This document shows positions 1,686 through 8,561 of a stretch of DNA of 64,000 nt, piece after piece. Position numbers and translations under genes: made by a program. The stretch comes from Bacteroidia bacterium (GTDB lineage Bacteria > Bacteroidota > Bacteroidia > UBA7662): positions 7,105 through 71,104 of the forward strand of contig JBMTCP010000008.1 of NCBI GenBank assembly GCA_049431025.1, in the 5' to 3' direction. The notes below the pieces were generated by a model, which searched no databases, was not told the DNA's origin, and saw only the letters and a list, made by a program, of their open reading frames with translations. Position 1 is the stretch's first letter, and the number at the start of each line of letters is the position of its first letter.

Positions 1686-2438
1686 TTAGCGGCTCGCTTG
1701 GGCAAAGCGGGATGAGACCTCATCCCAGTTCAAAACATTCCAAAAAGCATTCACGTAATCCGCTCTGCGGTTTTGGAATTTCAAGTAATAGGAATGTTCC
1801 CAAACATCCAAACCCAACAGGGGAAAGCCCCCACATCCGTTTTGTTTTTCGGTATCCATGAGCGGATTGTCCTGGTTGGCGGTTGAGCACAAATGCAGCG
1901 CTCCGTCCTTGTAACACAGCCAGGCCCAACCGCTTCCAAACCTGGCCATTGCGGCCTTGGAAAATTGCTCTTTCAGGGCCTCCACGGTTCCAAAGCTTTT
2001 TTGGATTGCGGCCATAAGGGGCTCGGATGGACTTGTACCTGCTTGGGGGGTAAGGATTTTCCAAAACAGCGAATGGTTGTAATGACCGCCTCCGTTATTG
2101 CGTACGGCCACGGGTAGGGACGAAATCATCCCCATCAATTCCTCCAACGAACGATCCGCGTGGGGCGTTCCGGTCAATGCAGCATTGAGGTTGTTGACAT
2201 AAGCTGCATGGTGTTTGGAATGATGAATTTCCATAGTCATGGCATCAAAATGGGGCTCCAAAGCATTGTAGGCGTAGGGTAGGGCGGGGAGTTCGAAAGA
2301 CATGGTAGTGTTAAAGTTTGATGGTGAAGTTGGATTTGTAGCGGCATCTTGGGCCTTCAAAAGCCCACCAAAGCGTGGAAAGACGAGGAGGCCCGTGAGC
2401 CCCATCAAAGTCTTTTGTATCCAATCGCGGCGGTTCAT
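1686..2438 (-). CDS. sodA: superoxide dismutase, Mn-type, with twin-arginine (Tat) signal peptide
   Basis: Fe/Mn SOD signatures ([14 protein letters not shown]). The Mn-type discriminators [11 protein letters not shown] and NQDNP are present. The N-terminus [19 protein letters not shown] resembles a Tat signal. Confidence 0.85.
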
Positions 2439-2507: not shown

Positions 2508-2643
2508 GCGTACAAAGTTCATTCGGCGATTAGATTTGGATAAACCATTGAGACGCCGACTTGCGTTAAATTCTATTGAAAGTAGGGTTGGGTGAGGGGT
2601 TGTTTTTTTAGACACAACTAAATTACCTTTGGGTCTTGATGTT

Positions 2644-4500
2644 ATGATGTTGGTGTCCCCTTGTTTAAGGTTTCGGCTTCGCTGGGTTGGGTTCCTGGGT
2701 TGGGGGCTTTTACTCCTGACGGAGCTCCACAGCGCGGTAGCCGCCGAAATCAGCCAAGGAAGCAAAGTCGTCCAAGGGAATCCGCCACGGGTCGTTGCAA
2801 CCACCGGGTTTTTGGCGGATATCGCGTCACAAATAGCGGGTCCTTCGGCCCTTGTGGTTTCCTTGCTTCCGCAGGGTTCCGATCCTCACCGTTACGATGC
2901 CGTTCCTAACGACACCAAAAGGCTTGCCGAAGCCGATTTGATTATCCAAAACGGTCTCAACCTGGAAGGCTGGCTGGACAAACTCATTGCCCAGGCCGCA
3001 AGCAAGGCTCAAAAAGTGACTGCGAGCGATGGAATCGCTGCCCTCAGCGACCCCCAGCACCCCGGCTCCTACGATCCGCACGCGTGGATGGATCCCGTGC
3101 TGGGGCGGGTTTATGCCCGCAATATTTACCGCGCCCTCTTGGCCCTTTGTCCCAATGATTCAATAAACCTAACCCGTCGTTGGTCAGATTATGATCAGCG
3201 CTTGGTGGCTCTGCACGAGGAATGCGATGCCTTGCTCCGTACGGTTCCCGATAAGTTCCGGGTCTTGGCCACGAACCATGACGCATTTCGGTATTTTGCA
3301 GCAAGGTATCGTTTTCGGGTGGTTTCTTTGTTGGGTACAAGTACGGATGCCGATGTACGAACCTCCGATGTTTTGCACATGAAACAAGTGGTTCTTCAAA
3401 ACGATTTACCCTGTGTTTTTGTGGAGGCCAATCTGAATCCCAAAATGTTACAACAAATTGCACAGGATGCGGGTTGTCGTTTGGGGCCCGCACTGTATGC
3501 GGACAGCATGGGTCCTCCAGGCAGTGGGGCGGATTCCTATACCGGTATGTTGTCCAGCAATGCGAGGGTTTTGGCATCCTCGCTGGGAGGCAAAGGGACC
3601 CCAAACAGGACCTCGGACCATTCGGCGCCGGTTTCGGTGTTTTGGGTTTTGAGCTTAATGCTCCCTGCAGGGGCTTTTTTGGCCTGGTCTTTGCGGCCAT
3701 CGCGCTCTGCTAACGCGATTTCCACCGGCCCTAACGAAGACAAACCGGGTCCGCGATTACGGGTTCAGGATCTTAGCGTAACCTACGATCGTAAGTCGGT
3801 CCTGAATGCTTTTTCGGCGGAATTCCATGAGGGATTGTGTTACGGTATATTAGGGCCGAACGGAGCCGGAAAGTCCACGTTATTCAAGGCGATTCTGGGA
3901 TTGAACGAGCCGGACCACGGTAACATTGAATACCGGCAAGAGCCGGTAAGGGTTTCCCCAAGGCGCATCGCTTATGTTCCCCAAAAAGGTATGGTGGACT
4001 GGGACTTTCCGGCCACCGTCCAAGACATCGTTCAAATGGGACGATTGCCGTGGCGGGGGGCCGGGCGACCCCTGGGTCGCGCGGACCTGCGGTCCGTCCA
4101 GGAAGCCCTGGAAGCCCTGGAGTTGGTGGACCTGCGCCACCGTCCCCTCAACCAACTTTCCGGGGGGCAGCAACAAAGGGTCTTCCTGGCCCGGGCCCTC
4201 GCCCAAGAAGCCGAAACCCTCTTGTTGGATGAGCCCTTCGTGGGGGTGGATGCCGCCACCGAGGCCAAAATTGTGGAAATACTCCATCGGTTTACCCGGG
4301 AACAAGGGGGCTTGGTGCTCATGATCCACCACGACCTTCAAAGGGCCAACACCTATTTTGATGAGGTCCTATTGATAAACCAACGCCTCATTGCCCAAGG
4401 CCCCCCGGAAGAGATTCTGGTCGAATCCAACCTGCTCAAGGCCTTTTCGGGGGTGGACCCCGGCTACGCAGACGCCGCCCAATACCGCAACAAACGCTGA
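2644..4500 (+). CDS. fused metal ABC transporter: periplasmic substrate-binding protein (TroA/ZnuA cluster A-I) - TM helix - ABC ATPase (ZnuC/MntB-like)
   Basis: Signal peptide MMLVSPCLRF...HSAVA. SBP motifs DPHRYDA, DPHAWMDP, NHDAFRYF. Hydrophobic segment VSVFWVLSLMLPAGAFLAWSL at about 3630-3695. The NBD carries Walker A GPNGAGKST, signature LSGGQQQRV and Walker B LLLDEP. There is no in-frame stop between the domains. The ORF track starts at TTG 2629; the first ATG is at 2644. Confidence 0.75.
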   Translation: MMLVSPCLRFRLRWVGFLGWGLLLLTELHSAVAAEISQGSKVVQGNPPRVVATTGFLADIASQIAGPSALVVSLLPQGSDPHRYDAVPNDTKRLAEADLIIQNGLNLEGWLDKLIAQAASKAQKVTASDGIAALSDPQHPGSYDPHAWMDPVLGRVYARNIYRALLALCPNDSINLTRRWSDYDQRLVALHEECDALLRTVPDKFRVLATNHDAFRYFAARYRFRVVSLLGTSTDADVRTSDVLHMKQVVLQNDLPCVFVEANLNPKMLQQIAQDAGCRLGPALYADSMGPPGSGADSYTGMLSSNARVLASSLGGKGTPNRTSDHSAPVSVFWVLSLMLPAGAFLAWSLRPSRSANAISTGPNEDKPGPRLRVQDLSVTYDRKSVLNAFSAEFHEGLCYGILGPNGAGKSTLFKAILGLNEPDHGNIEYRQEPVRVSPRRIAYVPQKGMVDWDFPATVQDIVQMGRLPWRGAGRPLGRADLRSVQEALEALELVDLRHRPLNQLSGGQQQRVFLARALAQEAETLLLDEPFVGVDAATEAKIVEILHRFTREQGGLVLMIHHDLQRANTYFDEVLLINQRLIAQGPPEEILVESNLLKAFSGVDPGYADAAQYRNKR

Positions 4501-4501
4501 A

Positions 4502-5851
4502 ATGGAAGCCCTGGAAACGACCTGGACCCTTTGGGACTACCTCCAACAGCCTTATTTTCAAAGGGCCCTTGGGGCAGCGATTATGGCCGGCACCGCCTGC
4601 GCCCTTTTGGGTTGTTTTATGGTGTTACGAAACATGGCCCTGATTGGCGATGCGCTTTCGCACGCCATACTGCCGGGGGTTGTGGTGGGTTTTATGATTG
4701 CAGGTCATAGTTTACTTGCCTTTTTTGTTGGTTCCGTTATGGCCGGTTTGTTCGCGGCAGTGCTGATTGCCTGGTTGCAAAACCGGGGTGGGGCTCGAAA
4801 CGACGCCGCTATCGGAATTGTTTTTTCGGCAATGTTCGCTTTGGGTGTTATCGGGATTTCTACACTTACCCGGCGTGAAGGGGTACACCTGGACATGAAA
4901 GATTTTTTGTTTGGTAATGTGTTAGGAATTGGTCAAGATGATTTGGTTTTGTCTGCCCTGGTTTTGGTTTTCGATGTCTTTTGTATTGGGGTGTTTTTGC
5001 CTTATTTCTTTGCCTCCGCATTTCAGGCCGATGTTGCCCAAACCATGGGAATCCCTACCCGTATTCTGCATTATTTCACCGTTTGGATGCTTAGCCTGAC
5101 GGTGGTGGCTTCCTTGCAATCGGTGGGCGTCATTTTGGTCGTATCCATGCTTATCGTACCTGCTTCCACGGCTTTGATCATGAGCCATAAACTACAAAAA
5201 GTCCTGCTTTGGGCTATGGGCTTAGGGGCCTTTAGTTCGGCCAGCGGGCTTATGGCCTCGGTCTATTGGGATACCGCGCCCGGTCCGGCGATCACCCTTA
5301 CCGCCACATTCCTGTACCTTATCGTTTTGGTGGGCCATCCCCAAAGAGGATTATGGCCCCAAAAGATGCGTAAAGCCCTTCGAATCTGGCAACATTGGGC
5401 CGAAGATTTTATCAAAGCCCTGCATCGTAACCCGGATTATAACAACAAACAAATCCAAGACGAATTGGGATGGAGCCCAAGAATCCTTTACCTCTCTCTG
5501 CTTTATTGCCGTAACAAAGGATGGATTCTTACCGATTCCAAGAACAAATCGCAATCGGCCCTCACCCCAACCGGGCTCCAGAAAGCCTTGAATATGGTTA
5601 GGGCCCACCGGCTCTGGGAAAGTTATTTGGCCCAAAAGCAAGGCTTTGAACCGCATCAATTGCATTGGTTGGCCGAGAAGGATGAACACGTGCTACCCCA
5701 AGAGTTTTTGGATCAAATCGACCAACGCCTGGGATTCCCCGATTTGGATCCCCACGGCTCACCCATACCACGAAACGAAGCCCATCCAAGCCCAAAGCCA
5801 CCATCAGCTCCAACGGGCTTCGACCCATCAGCCGCTCGTAAAGGCCTCTAA
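4502..5851 (+). CDS. fused ABC-3 family metal permease (ZnuB/MntC/TroC-like) - DtxR/MntR-family metalloregulator (HTH plus metal-binding dimerisation domain)
   Basis: The N-terminal roughly 280 aa is a multi-TM permease (LGCFMVLRNMALIGDALSHAILPGVV). The C-terminal roughly 170 aa has a winged helix (NKQIQDELGWSPRILYLSLLYCRNKGWIL...LTPTG) and a DtxR-like VRAHRLWESYL...EKDEHVLPQEFLDQIDQRLGFPDLDPHGSPIP. The ATG at 4502 follows the upstream stop directly. Confidence 0.75.
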   Translation: MEALETTWTLWDYLQQPYFQRALGAAIMAGTACALLGCFMVLRNMALIGDALSHAILPGVVVGFMIAGHSLLAFFVGSVMAGLFAAVLIAWLQNRGGARNDAAIGIVFSAMFALGVIGISTLTRREGVHLDMKDFLFGNVLGIGQDDLVLSALVLVFDVFCIGVFLPYFFASAFQADVAQTMGIPTRILHYFTVWMLSLTVVASLQSVGVILVVSMLIVPASTALIMSHKLQKVLLWAMGLGAFSSASGLMASVYWDTAPGPAITLTATFLYLIVLVGHPQRGLWPQKMRKALRIWQHWAEDFIKALHRNPDYNNKQIQDELGWSPRILYLSLLYCRNKGWILTDSKNKSQSALTPTGLQKALNMVRAHRLWESYLAQKQGFEPHQLHWLAEKDEHVLPQEFLDQIDQRLGFPDLDPHGSPIPRNEAHPSPKPPSAPTGFDPSAARKGL

Positions 5852-6906: not shown

Positions 6907-8561
6907 TAGCGCCAACGAAGTTCGGTGGTCCAACCGGGTTTGAGCTCCAAATTACGGCTAATCCAACGGACTGTTTCCGGTTGGCGCCCCTCACGGTAAC
7001 GACCGGCATCCCATTCGCCGTTGTTGTTGCGGTCCTCCAGGACCGAAACCTTGTACAGGCCCGGCAAAATACCTTCCAGCGCATGAAGCGTCAATCCTTC
7101 TTCGCGGCTCTTGTAAACCAAGCGCTCCACCAGCTGATCGTCCATGGTCCAAACACTTAAAACCAAGGACCCCGACCTATCCCATTCGTCCAAAGCCGTA
7201 TCCAGGCCCAAAACCAAAGCGGCGCGCTCCCCCTCTTGACCCCAGTCGGCCTGATAGGGCCCGCTCTCGCGATCGTTACCATCCACAAATGCCCCGCTAT
7301 CCACACGCAAGCGCCATTCGGCGGCCAACTTCTTGTCCGTTTCCGGAGCCAACGCATACCATTCCTTTCCGGCAGATCCATAAGGTGTTCGACCCTCGGC
7401 ATCTCGTTTCCAAACCACGGCCTTCTCGCCTTTTTGGGCATGCTGCCAGCAAGCCAAAGACTTTCCATCTTGGTAATGAACCGGACGGTCCCATACCAAT
7501 CGCCGCTCCATCGCATGAACCGCCGGACCCCACGAAACGACTTTGGGTCCCATAACCCGGCCCAAGGCCTCTTGCTTCGGGTCCTTTCCTTCTTCCTGCG
7601 AATGGAGTTCAGTCAACAGGGTATCCGTGCCCTGTGGAAAGACCACCCGCAAAGCAAAAGACGATTCCCCCTGGGGGGGCACCGAAACCCAAAGAGTATC
7701 CCCCGAAACCCGTGTTTGGGCGCCGTAAATCAAAAGGCCGTCCTCGTTAACCGCCCTAACCTTGATCGCATAGGGTTTCCCATAAAAAACCAAGGCCAGG
7801 GAGCCATCCTCGGACCATTTCCAACGACGGAGCCGGGTAGAGGCCTCTTCGTCCTGAGCGAAAAGCGGCAGCAAAACCGCCGTATCAACGGTTGGATCCA
7901 AAAAGCCCGTAAAGGCTTTGGGTTGGTCGGGCCCATAGGCCTTATCCCGTTCCGGGTCTTCAAAAGCTACCAGTCGGTATATGCGCGTTGGCAGATTGCG
8001 AAAAACAAAGCGACCAGAATCATCGGCCAAGGTCCAACGCAAGGGCATAACGGACTCCGAACGATCTGCGTAAAGGCCGACTGTCAAATTTTTGACGGGC
8101 ATCCCGCTGCGGGCATCCCGAATGCGGCCCTGCAACGACAACGAATCCAAATAGGTCCCCGTTGAAAAAGCATAGGTAAGTTTTGATAACACATTTCCTT
8201 CGGTAAGGTCGGAGACAGCCCCACCCAAATCCACGCTGTACGTTGATGCTTCCTCCAAAGAATCGGAATCCAAAATCAAATACACCCGCTTGAGCCTGGT
8301 TCTCAATTCGTTACGACCCCTAGGGACCAAGCCCCACCGAACCAGGCCGGGGTCTTTGACCTGAACATATTCATCAAATTCAAAAACCAATCGGTCCGGC
8401 CTTTGTCCTACACTTTGATCGGGTGGGGTAACTCGGATTAATCGGGGTGGGGTTTGGTCTTTGGCCCCCCCATCCGGAGGCACAATGTTAGCGCAAGCGT
8501 TAAAAAGCAGGAGCAACAGCGAACCAAGAACCCAACGCATGCCTGCCCAATAATTCCTCAA
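6906..8561 (-). CDS. lipoprotein with N-terminal bacterial Ig-like domain, function unknown
   Basis: Signal peptide plus lipobox LLLLLFNAC. The N-terminal PPRLIRVTPPDQSV...LVFEFDEYV resembles Big_5/SbsA-type Ig-like domains. No catalytic motif recognised. Confidence 0.5.
   Translation of the reverse strand: MRNYWAGMRWVLGSLLLLLFNACANIVPPDGGAKDQTPPRLIRVTPPDQSVGQRPDRLVFEFDEYVQVKDPGLVRWGLVPRGRNELRTRLKRVYLILDSDSLEEASTYSVDLGGAVSDLTEGNVLSKLTYAFSTGTYLDSLSLQGRIRDARSGMPVKNLTVGLYADRSESVMPLRWTLADDSGRFVFRNLPTRIYRLVAFEDPERDKAYGPDQPKAFTGFLDPTVDTAVLLPLFAQDEEASTRLRRWKWSEDGSLALVFYGKPYAIKVRAVNEDGLLIYGAQTRVSGDTLWVSVPPQGESSFALRVVFPQGTDTLLTELHSQEEGKDPKQEALGRVMGPKVVSWGPAVHAMERRLVWDRPVHYQDGKSLACWQHAQKGEKAVVWKRDAEGRTPYGSAGKEWYALAPETDKKLAAEWRLRVDSGAFVDGNDRESGPYQADWGQEGERAALVLGLDTALDEWDRSGSLVLSVWTMDDQLVERLVYKSREEGLTLHALEGILPGLYKVSVLEDRNNNGEWDAGRYREGRQPETVRWISRNLELKPGWTTELRWR

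Follow-up and report, generated by a model that had tools for sequence, protein, structure and literature searches.

The fusion of an ABC-3 (ATP-binding cassette, ABC) metal permease with a DtxR-like domain has been described for YtgC–YtgR (CT069), encoded in the ytgABCD importer operon of Chlamydia trachomatis. A fusion of this kind is analysed here in a Bacteroidota genome (Bacteroidia bacterium, lineage UBA7662, assembly GCA_049431025.1, contig JBMTCP010000008.1). The stretch studied, called the window below, comprises 64,000 nucleotides (nt; positions 7,105 to 71,104 of the forward strand of the contig), and positions are counted from its first letter. In both organisms the permease and the DtxR-like domain share one open reading frame (ORF) within an importer operon that has an operator at its promoter, and the length of CT069, about 450 amino acids (aa), is similar to that of the window protein. 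For the Chlamydia fusion, cleavage to a 28–30 kDa fragment and promoter binding have been shown experimentally. In the Bacteroidota family the DNA-contact residues, as judged against the Mn repressor DR2539, are unconserved. Chlamydia has in addition a second, unfused permease (YtgD), as well as a separate solute-binding protein (SBP) and a separate ATPase, whereas the window operon, in which SBP and ATPase are fused, encodes a single permease, which should form a homodimer carrying two modules. Fe(II) dependence is reported for YtgR, whereas the window module has Mn-type ligands. Finally, YtgR is the sole such regulator in Chlamydia, whereas relatives of the window operon often also have a canonical free DtxR.

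In both structure and sequence, aa 290–430 are matched best by DR2539 of Deinococcus radiodurans and by MntR (Rv2788) of Mycobacterium tuberculosis. With this Mn subgroup the window module shares the primary D, E, E and H ligands together with Lys 14, and an ancillary His/Glu/His/Asp/His set. DR2539 and MntR occur free in the cytoplasm and have an SH3-like ancillary domain, whereas the window fold is joined to transmembrane (TM) helix 9 and lacks this domain; moreover, D130 of DR2539 is replaced by Ser, and Y12, A39, R46, K47 and Y59 are all replaced. The SH3-like/FeoA domain is present in DtxR, IdeR, ScaR and DR2539, and is absent from the MntR of Bacillus subtilis as from the window protein. 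On the transporter side, the permease shares the nine-helix PsaC fold and the Asp/His channel site with PsaBCA of Streptococcus pneumoniae, a Mn importer of solved structure, and the SBP is closest to the AztC-type, PsaA and TroA structures, with the ligand set of TroA and AztC. In PsaBCA, TroABCD–TroR and AztABC the four functions lie on separate polypeptides, whereas here they are gathered in two. In tro operons the repressor gene follows a permease gene, which provides a plausible origin for the fusion.

In the reading that we favour, with a probability of about 0.5, the palindromic operator of this operon is read by a free, canonical DtxR/MntR protein, and the fused module is a metal sensor attached to the permease.

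Fold, metal site and DNA-reading head of the fused module

With high confidence, the ORF encodes an ABC-3 permease fused to a DtxR/MntR fold, belongs to a large annotated Bacteroidota family and forms part of a compact importer of two genes, whose operator is of the DR2539 type. The Pfam ABC-3 model (PF00950) matches aa 16–277 at 220.4 bits (cut-off 20.1), and the Fe_dep_repr_C model (PF02742) matches aa 355–424 at 78 bits (cut-off 27). Using phmmer, aa 300–425 align to both domains of solved DtxR-family proteins, including M. tuberculosis MntR (5zr4, E 1e-15), MtsR (6o5c), ScaR (chain residues 5–130), SloR, IdeR and DtxR. The AlphaFold2 model, built on 36 homologues, has a mean predicted local distance difference test score (pLDDT) of 81. 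It consists of nine TM helices, a turn at 279–283, and a long helix (284–309) that leaves the membrane and becomes helix 1 of the DtxR fold. Helices 315–322 and 326–339, a β-wing and the three helices of the dimerisation domain follow with a pLDDT of about 90. The linker helix reaches 85–91, with P280 and G283 invariant and the remainder variable but rich in Arg and Lys; the junction consists of a conserved SPxxG turn and the helix behind it, and aa 432–449 fall below 50. Structural comparison with Foldseek matches the C-terminal part to DR2539 (8pvt/8pw0; template-modelling score 0.83, root-mean-square deviation 1.7 Å, 128 columns, 30% identity), and then to MntR, SloR, ScaR, DtxR and IdeR, while aa 1–275 match the Mn permease PsaC (7kyp, 35% identity, E 5e-13). 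The permease has the nine-TM fold of a type II importer, and its invariant residues D50 and H54, in TM2, are equivalent to the D46/H50 coordination site in the PsaC channel. The initial annotation, which had proposed an ABC-3 permease and a DtxR domain in one ORF, is thus correct, and the protein contains the motifs that it had quoted (VRAHRLWESYL, EKDEHVLPQEF and DPHGSPIP).

That the fusion is real follows from its presence in more than 100 independent homologues. All of the best 120 homologue clusters (47–100% identity) contain both PF00950 and PF02742, and all the named ones come from Bacteroidota. Several independent assemblies (ENA, Logan and NCBI) contain proteins 99–100% identical to that of the window, and the same continuous ORF is found in more than 100 homologues at 47–91% identity. 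A scan of species-representative genomes retrieved the fusion in 39 loci, nearly all labelled Bacteroidota. NCBI annotates the homologues as 'metal ABC transporter permease' and IMG as 'ABC-type Mn2+/Zn2+ transport system permease subunit/Mn-dependent DtxR family transcriptional regulator'. According to a passage in a review on Chlamydia iron biology, Thompson et al. (2012) found orthologous permease–repressor fusions in 11 bacterial phyla. Permease–DtxR fusions outside Chlamydiae are already known, annotated and published, as well as abundant in Bacteroidota, and the novelty that had been seen in such an occurrence does not stand.

The metal-binding part of the module is strikingly well kept. 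In DR2539 the primary site is formed by D11, E102, E105 and H106, with K14, and the ancillary site by H79, E83, H98, D126, H128 and D130. Their counterparts in the window protein are D302, E392, E395 and H396, with K305, and H369, E373, H388, D416 and H418, with a Ser at position 130. The metal ligands of the module are intact. Positions 11, 79, 83, 98, 102, 105, 106, 126 and 128 (DR2539 numbering) are invariant in 118/118 fused homologues, as is the K14 equivalent, and position 130 is a Ser in 112 of them. According to the DR2539 study, acidic primary ligands characterise Mn sensors, whereas sulphur ligands characterise Fe sensors. Within the clade of the window protein, the ratio of nonsynonymous to synonymous substitution rates (dN/dS) is 0.02–0.05 for the metal/dimerisation domain and 0.02–0.07 for the permease. 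Since this part is under very strong constraint and carries Mn-type ligands, the fused module is probably, judging from its sequence, a working metal sensor.

The DNA-reading head looks quite different. The Pfam model of the DtxR DNA-binding domain (PF01325) has no match in the window protein, even at E ≤ 1; it scores 14 bits in a fused homologue (P0035) versus 57–65 bits in free Bacteroidota DtxR proteins. The module had been called a full repressor at the outset, which holds for the two-domain fold but not for its sequence signature. Contact residues were judged against the DR2539–DNA complex, in which Y12, A39, S40, T42, R46, K47 and Y59 contact DNA and residues 6–12 touch its backbone. The window protein has F303 (Y12), R327 (A39), I328 (S40), Y330 (T42), L334/Y335 (R46/K47) and K349 (Y59) at these positions; none of the contact residues is kept, and the positions vary across the 118 fused proteins. 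In the putative recognition helix α3 (SPRILYLSLLYC in the window module), only the core leucines are conserved among 103 fused proteins, whereas in 120 free Bacteroidota DtxR proteins Y12, T27, N28, A38, A39, S40, V41, T42, D43, M44, K46 and Y59 are each kept at 92–100%. The entropy of this helix is 2.70 bits in the fused set versus 0.51 bits in the free set, with a far smaller gap for the dimerisation domain (1.23 versus 0.86 bits), a contrast that is somewhat inflated by the different retrieval of the two sets. Helix 2, helix 3 and the wing have dN/dS values of 0.26–0.57 in the window clade, the helix-turn-helix (HTH) evolving about 10 times faster than the rest of the protein. In most homologues outside this clade, Arg, Lys and Gln abound in helix 3. 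The fused HTH thus keeps its fold, while its DNA-reading residues are not conserved. In the AlphaFold2 model, the equivalents of DR2539 residues 6–12 lie in the helix that runs straight into TM9, and the uncleaved protein could therefore hardly dock on DNA.

The ancillary domain of the module varies between branches. No match to the FeoA/SH3 model (PF04023) was found in the window protein, whereas the domain is present in many homologues of 495–510 aa; in the window clade it is swapped for a variable Pro/Ser-rich tail (5774–5848; alignment columns 460–563). It is also missing in other branches, namely in homologues of 416–432 aa (P0030, P0059, P0093, P0098, P0119) and in the 421-aa product of locus L031, and may have been lost more than once. 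An internal translation start at M289 was considered as a way in which a free domain might generally arise, and was discarded, this Met not being conserved (it is a Leu in locus L001).

The operator and its possible reader

By aligning the upstream regions of related operons, a palindrome (TTTAGACACAACTAAA) was found directly before the first gene. Its TTAG-N6-CTAA layout is that of the crystallographically defined DR2539 operator, ATTTTAGTCGCGCCTAAAAT. This motif occurs only once in the 64-kb window. In the 412 kb made up of the window and the related loci there are 32 occurrences, versus about 6 expected by chance, and 29 of the 32 lie at the promoter of an operon or of a lone permease–DtxR gene (28 related loci and the window, one per locus). 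The 26 distinct sites give the consensus tTTTAG-RYNNRY-CTAAAtt, with invariant outer pentamers. The promoters of Bacteroidetes are described by a −33/−7 model in which TAnnTTTG is the −7 element. A box resembling this element lies 3–11 nt after the palindrome in 26/29 promoters. A scan for sigma-70 promoters found none, as expected for Bacteroidota, and no riboswitch or other RNA family was detected with Rfam between 1500 and 6500 at E ≤ 1. Because the palindrome lies between the −33 and −7 boxes, a bound dimer would sit in the promoter spacer. The existence of the operator, its position and its DtxR-family type are established; as to its occupancy, we infer that a metal-loaded DtxR-family dimer very probably represses the operon at this palindrome.

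Other candidate sites were set aside. With an alternative spacing (TTAG-N8-CTAA), or with a degenerate 18-mer allowing mismatches, nothing rose above chance. An inverted repeat at 2472–2479/2500–2507 (ATCAAGTG...CACTTGAT) had been pointed out in the initial annotation as a possible DtxR-type palindrome. The repeat exists, but it overlaps the promoter of the divergent superoxide dismutase (SOD) gene, and L001, the closest relative, already lacks it; the DtxR-type operator that was looked for lies instead at 2607–2622. The SOD promoter can be recognised on the minus strand by a −33 TTTG (2516–2513) and a −7 TAATTTTG (2495–2488). Its spacer contains another palindrome, ACGCA-N5-TGCGT (2497–2511), which the inverted repeat overlaps; in L001–L003 its stem is kept and its loop varies, and it may be the operator of another regulator.

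The same operator is also associated with free repressor genes. In L011, L015, L039 and L043/L044, the fused operon is accompanied by a gene for a free canonical DtxR (PF01325 at 57–65 bits, with PF02742 and FeoA). It is the first gene, directly behind the palindrome, in L015, L039 and L043/L044; in L011, free gene and operon are divergent and flank the palindrome. Locus L043 (6001–10881; likewise L044) successively encodes a free DtxR, a separate SBP, a separate ATPase, a 430-aa permease–DtxR protein and another permease without a fused domain. This tro/ytg-like layout combines free and fused DtxR, and 37 nt separate an upstream TTAG-N6-CTAA from the free DtxR gene. Some permease–DtxR genes stand alone behind their own palindrome, with no SBP or ATPase within 5 kb (L025, L026, L027, L030 and L031, near 5001 or at the locus start), and operons with a free DtxR and an SBP, with or without an ATPase, occur without a nearby permease in L041 and L045 (6001–8500). 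Together, these arrangements look like one regulon under one canonical repressor.

How the module would be placed can be predicted from the transporter. A convergent rlmN-like gene follows the permease–DtxR gene, so the operon has two genes and a single permease, and with the SBP fused to its nucleotide-binding domain (NBD) the transporter is expected to be (SBP-NBD)2(permease–DtxR)2. PsaC has nine TM helices, the ninth of which contributes to the permease dimer interface. From this and the positive-inside loops, the two C-terminal modules would be cytoplasmic and close to the two-fold axis. According to the favoured reading, when metal is plentiful a metal-loaded DtxR-family dimer would sit on the palindrome, block RNA polymerase and switch the operon off. 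Its reader would be a canonical free DtxR/MntR encoded elsewhere in the genome, the presence of which in this genome is assumed. The permease-borne module would sense cytoplasmic metal for the transporter itself. With TM9 at the interface of the permease dimer, import might be throttled if metal made the two modules dimerise, in the manner of trans-inhibition in other ABC importers. A comparable working principle is found in the C2 domain of MetNI and in ModBC, where a cytoplasmic ligand-binding domain on the transporter senses the substrate and slows import. In MetNI and ModBC it is the ATPase that carries this sensor, whose fold is not that of DtxR. A more specific version, which we regard as tentative and rather unlikely, is that the module is no longer a transcription factor at all: the two modules would dimerise when Mn rises and lock or slow the importer, with transcription left to a separate DtxR/MntR.

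The main alternative follows the Chlamydia model, in which the module would be the operon's own repressor, released by proteolysis or still tethered, dimerised by metal on the palindrome at 2607–2622 and thereby autoregulating the operon. Several observations weigh against the favoured reading, some of which speak for this model. The architecture is that of YtgC–YtgR, whose homologous fused domain binds DNA after cleavage, and a DtxR-type operator stands at the operon promoter. The complete winged-helix fold is modelled at high confidence and has been retained with a dN/dS below 1, and the Arg/Lys/Gln-rich helix 3 of most homologues would suit nucleic-acid binding. The palindrome in front of the monocistronic permease–DtxR genes (L025–L031) looks like classical autoregulation. 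Neither the 64-kb window nor the adjoining 10 kb on its left contains a free DtxR gene; the contig context of the locus was taken from a near-identical protein (P0002), and an exact-sequence look-up of the window protein had no match. The inflation of the entropy contrast mentioned above also counts here, and we know of no transporter gated by a DtxR domain. On the other hand, the half-sites are invariant in the 26 distinct sites whereas the reading head differs in almost every homologue, and with an invariant operator and an ever-changing helix the fused module is hard to accept as the reader. The lack of a PF01325 match, the lost contact residues, the entropy of α3, the dN/dS of the HTH and the co-occurrence of free DtxR proteins all argue that the module does not read the operator; the canonical free DtxR of the same operons would make a fused repressor redundant, and the helical connection to TM9 stands in the way of docking before cleavage. 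Autoregulation by the fused module is a serious but less probable alternative, and the proposal that the importer carries its own regulator is doubtful.

Two further explanations can be considered much more briefly. The module might be a decaying, functionless remnant of an adjacent repressor gene that became fused in a tro-like operon, which would fit the fast-evolving HTH and the replacement of the SH3/FeoA domain by a disordered tail in the window clade. However, few parts of the protein are as conserved as the metal/dimerisation domain, and the invariance of every ligand in 118 homologues, down to 47% identity, is incompatible with decay, so that this explanation is very improbable. The fusion might also be an artefact, a frameshift or assembly error having joined the permease to a separate regulator gene, as the initial annotation had itself envisaged. 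Nothing was found in favour of this possibility, which is refuted by the continuous ORF of more than 100 homologues, the near-identical proteins of independent assemblies and the conserved turn and helix at the junction; its probability is negligible. Remnant and artefact alike can be given very little weight.

The importer, its metal and the neighbouring genes

The features of the locus are collected in Table 1. The importer is of the cluster A-I type (PsaABC, TroABCD, ZnuABC), with its four functions in two polypeptides. As had been noticed initially, the gene upstream of the permease–DtxR gene encodes an SBP-NBD fusion. Its Pfam matches are ZnuA (aa 55–316) and ABC_tran (aa 392–537), numbered on an ORF of 623 aa for which an independent gene caller gives 618 aa, and its TM anchor is encoded at nt 3631–3693 (aa 330–350). 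It is in frame and free of stops in 24/24 related loci that have an SBP-NBD, and in the window the ATG of the permease–DtxR gene lies 1 nt after its TGA.

Table 1. Positions of the features of the importer locus in the window
Feature	Position	Strand	Description
Divergent Mn-type superoxide dismutase	1686..2438	-	Pfam Sod_Fe_N and Sod_Fe_C; own promoter
−33-like element TTG	2600..2602	+	Read from sequence; 21 nt upstream of the −7 box
DtxR/MntR-type operator palindrome TTTAGACACAACTAAA	2607..2622	.	TTAG-N6-CTAA core at 2608-2621
−7 box TACCTTTG (TAnnTTTG)	2624..2631	+	Bacteroidetes-type; gene 1 ATG at 2644
Gene 1, SBP-NBD fusion, 618 aa	2644..4500	+	Signal peptide, ZnuA-type solute-binding domain, one TM anchor, ABC ATPase
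Gene 2, permease–DtxR	4502-5851	+	One unbroken ORF, 449 codons and stop
ABC-3 permease, aa 1-282	4502..5347	+	Nine TM helices, N-terminus out, C-terminus in
Basic linker, aa 283-300	5348..5401	+	One predicted helix continuous with DtxR-fold helix 1 (H284-309)
Winged-helix domain, aa 301-355	5402..5566	+	α1 with ligand D302, α2 315-322, α3 326-339, wing
DtxR dimerisation and metal-binding domain, aa 356-424	5567..5773	+	Ligands H369, E373, H388, E392, E395, H396, D416, H418
Pro/Ser-rich disordered tail, aa 425-449, and stop	5774..5851	+	Replaces the SH3/FeoA ancillary domain of most homologues

The nature of the imported metal was left unclear in the initial annotation, which had noted a His in the NHDAFRYF motif of the SBP and a divergent Mn-SOD; both are present, and the ambiguity is real. 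The SBP ligands are H/H/H/D, as in TroA and AztC, and not H/H/E/D as in PsaA, MntC and SitA, and in NCBIfam it scores with both Zn (Azt) and Mn (Mnt, Slo) models without reaching the cut-off of any. The sensor, with its D/E/E/H site of the Mn type, and the Mn-SOD point to Mn. The SOD scores 275 bits with the SOD[Mn] model versus 193 bits with SOD[Fe], and the order SOD / SBP-NBD / permease–DtxR is kept in 15 related loci. Owing to the Mn-type sensor ligands and the conserved Mn-SOD neighbour, the imported metal is most probably Mn(II), as far as sequence comparison can tell.

The N-terminus of the SOD (MNRRDWIQK...) resembles a twin-arginine signal, although no match was found there with a Tat-signal hidden Markov model; this motif suggests that a cofactor-loaded, periplasmic Mn-SOD could be exported. 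Between the SOD and the importer, a small gene for a secreted protein with LTxxQ-like repeats (of CpxP/Spy/ZraP-like look) is inserted in L010 (about 2720–3130), L013, L016 and L017. SprA and GcvH are also neighbours of the importer locus, which, like the named homologues, points to a Bacteroidota bacterium.

Implications for the fusion family

As a sighting outside Chlamydiae, the window fusion adds little. The useful result is the opposition, across more than 100 Bacteroidota homologues, between an invariant metal site and a drifting DNA head, together with an invariant DR2539-type operator. The operator TTTAG-N6-CTAAA offers a means of predicting Mn-homeostasis regulons in Bacteroidota genomes from metagenomes. 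The comparison also raises the question of whether the cleave-and-repress mode of Chlamydia is general, or whether the fused domain has been re-used as a sensor acting on the transporter. If the gating sensor were confirmed, it would be the first DtxR-fold domain involved in post-translational transporter gating, and many of the 'YtgCR-like repressor fusions' in databases would not be repressors.

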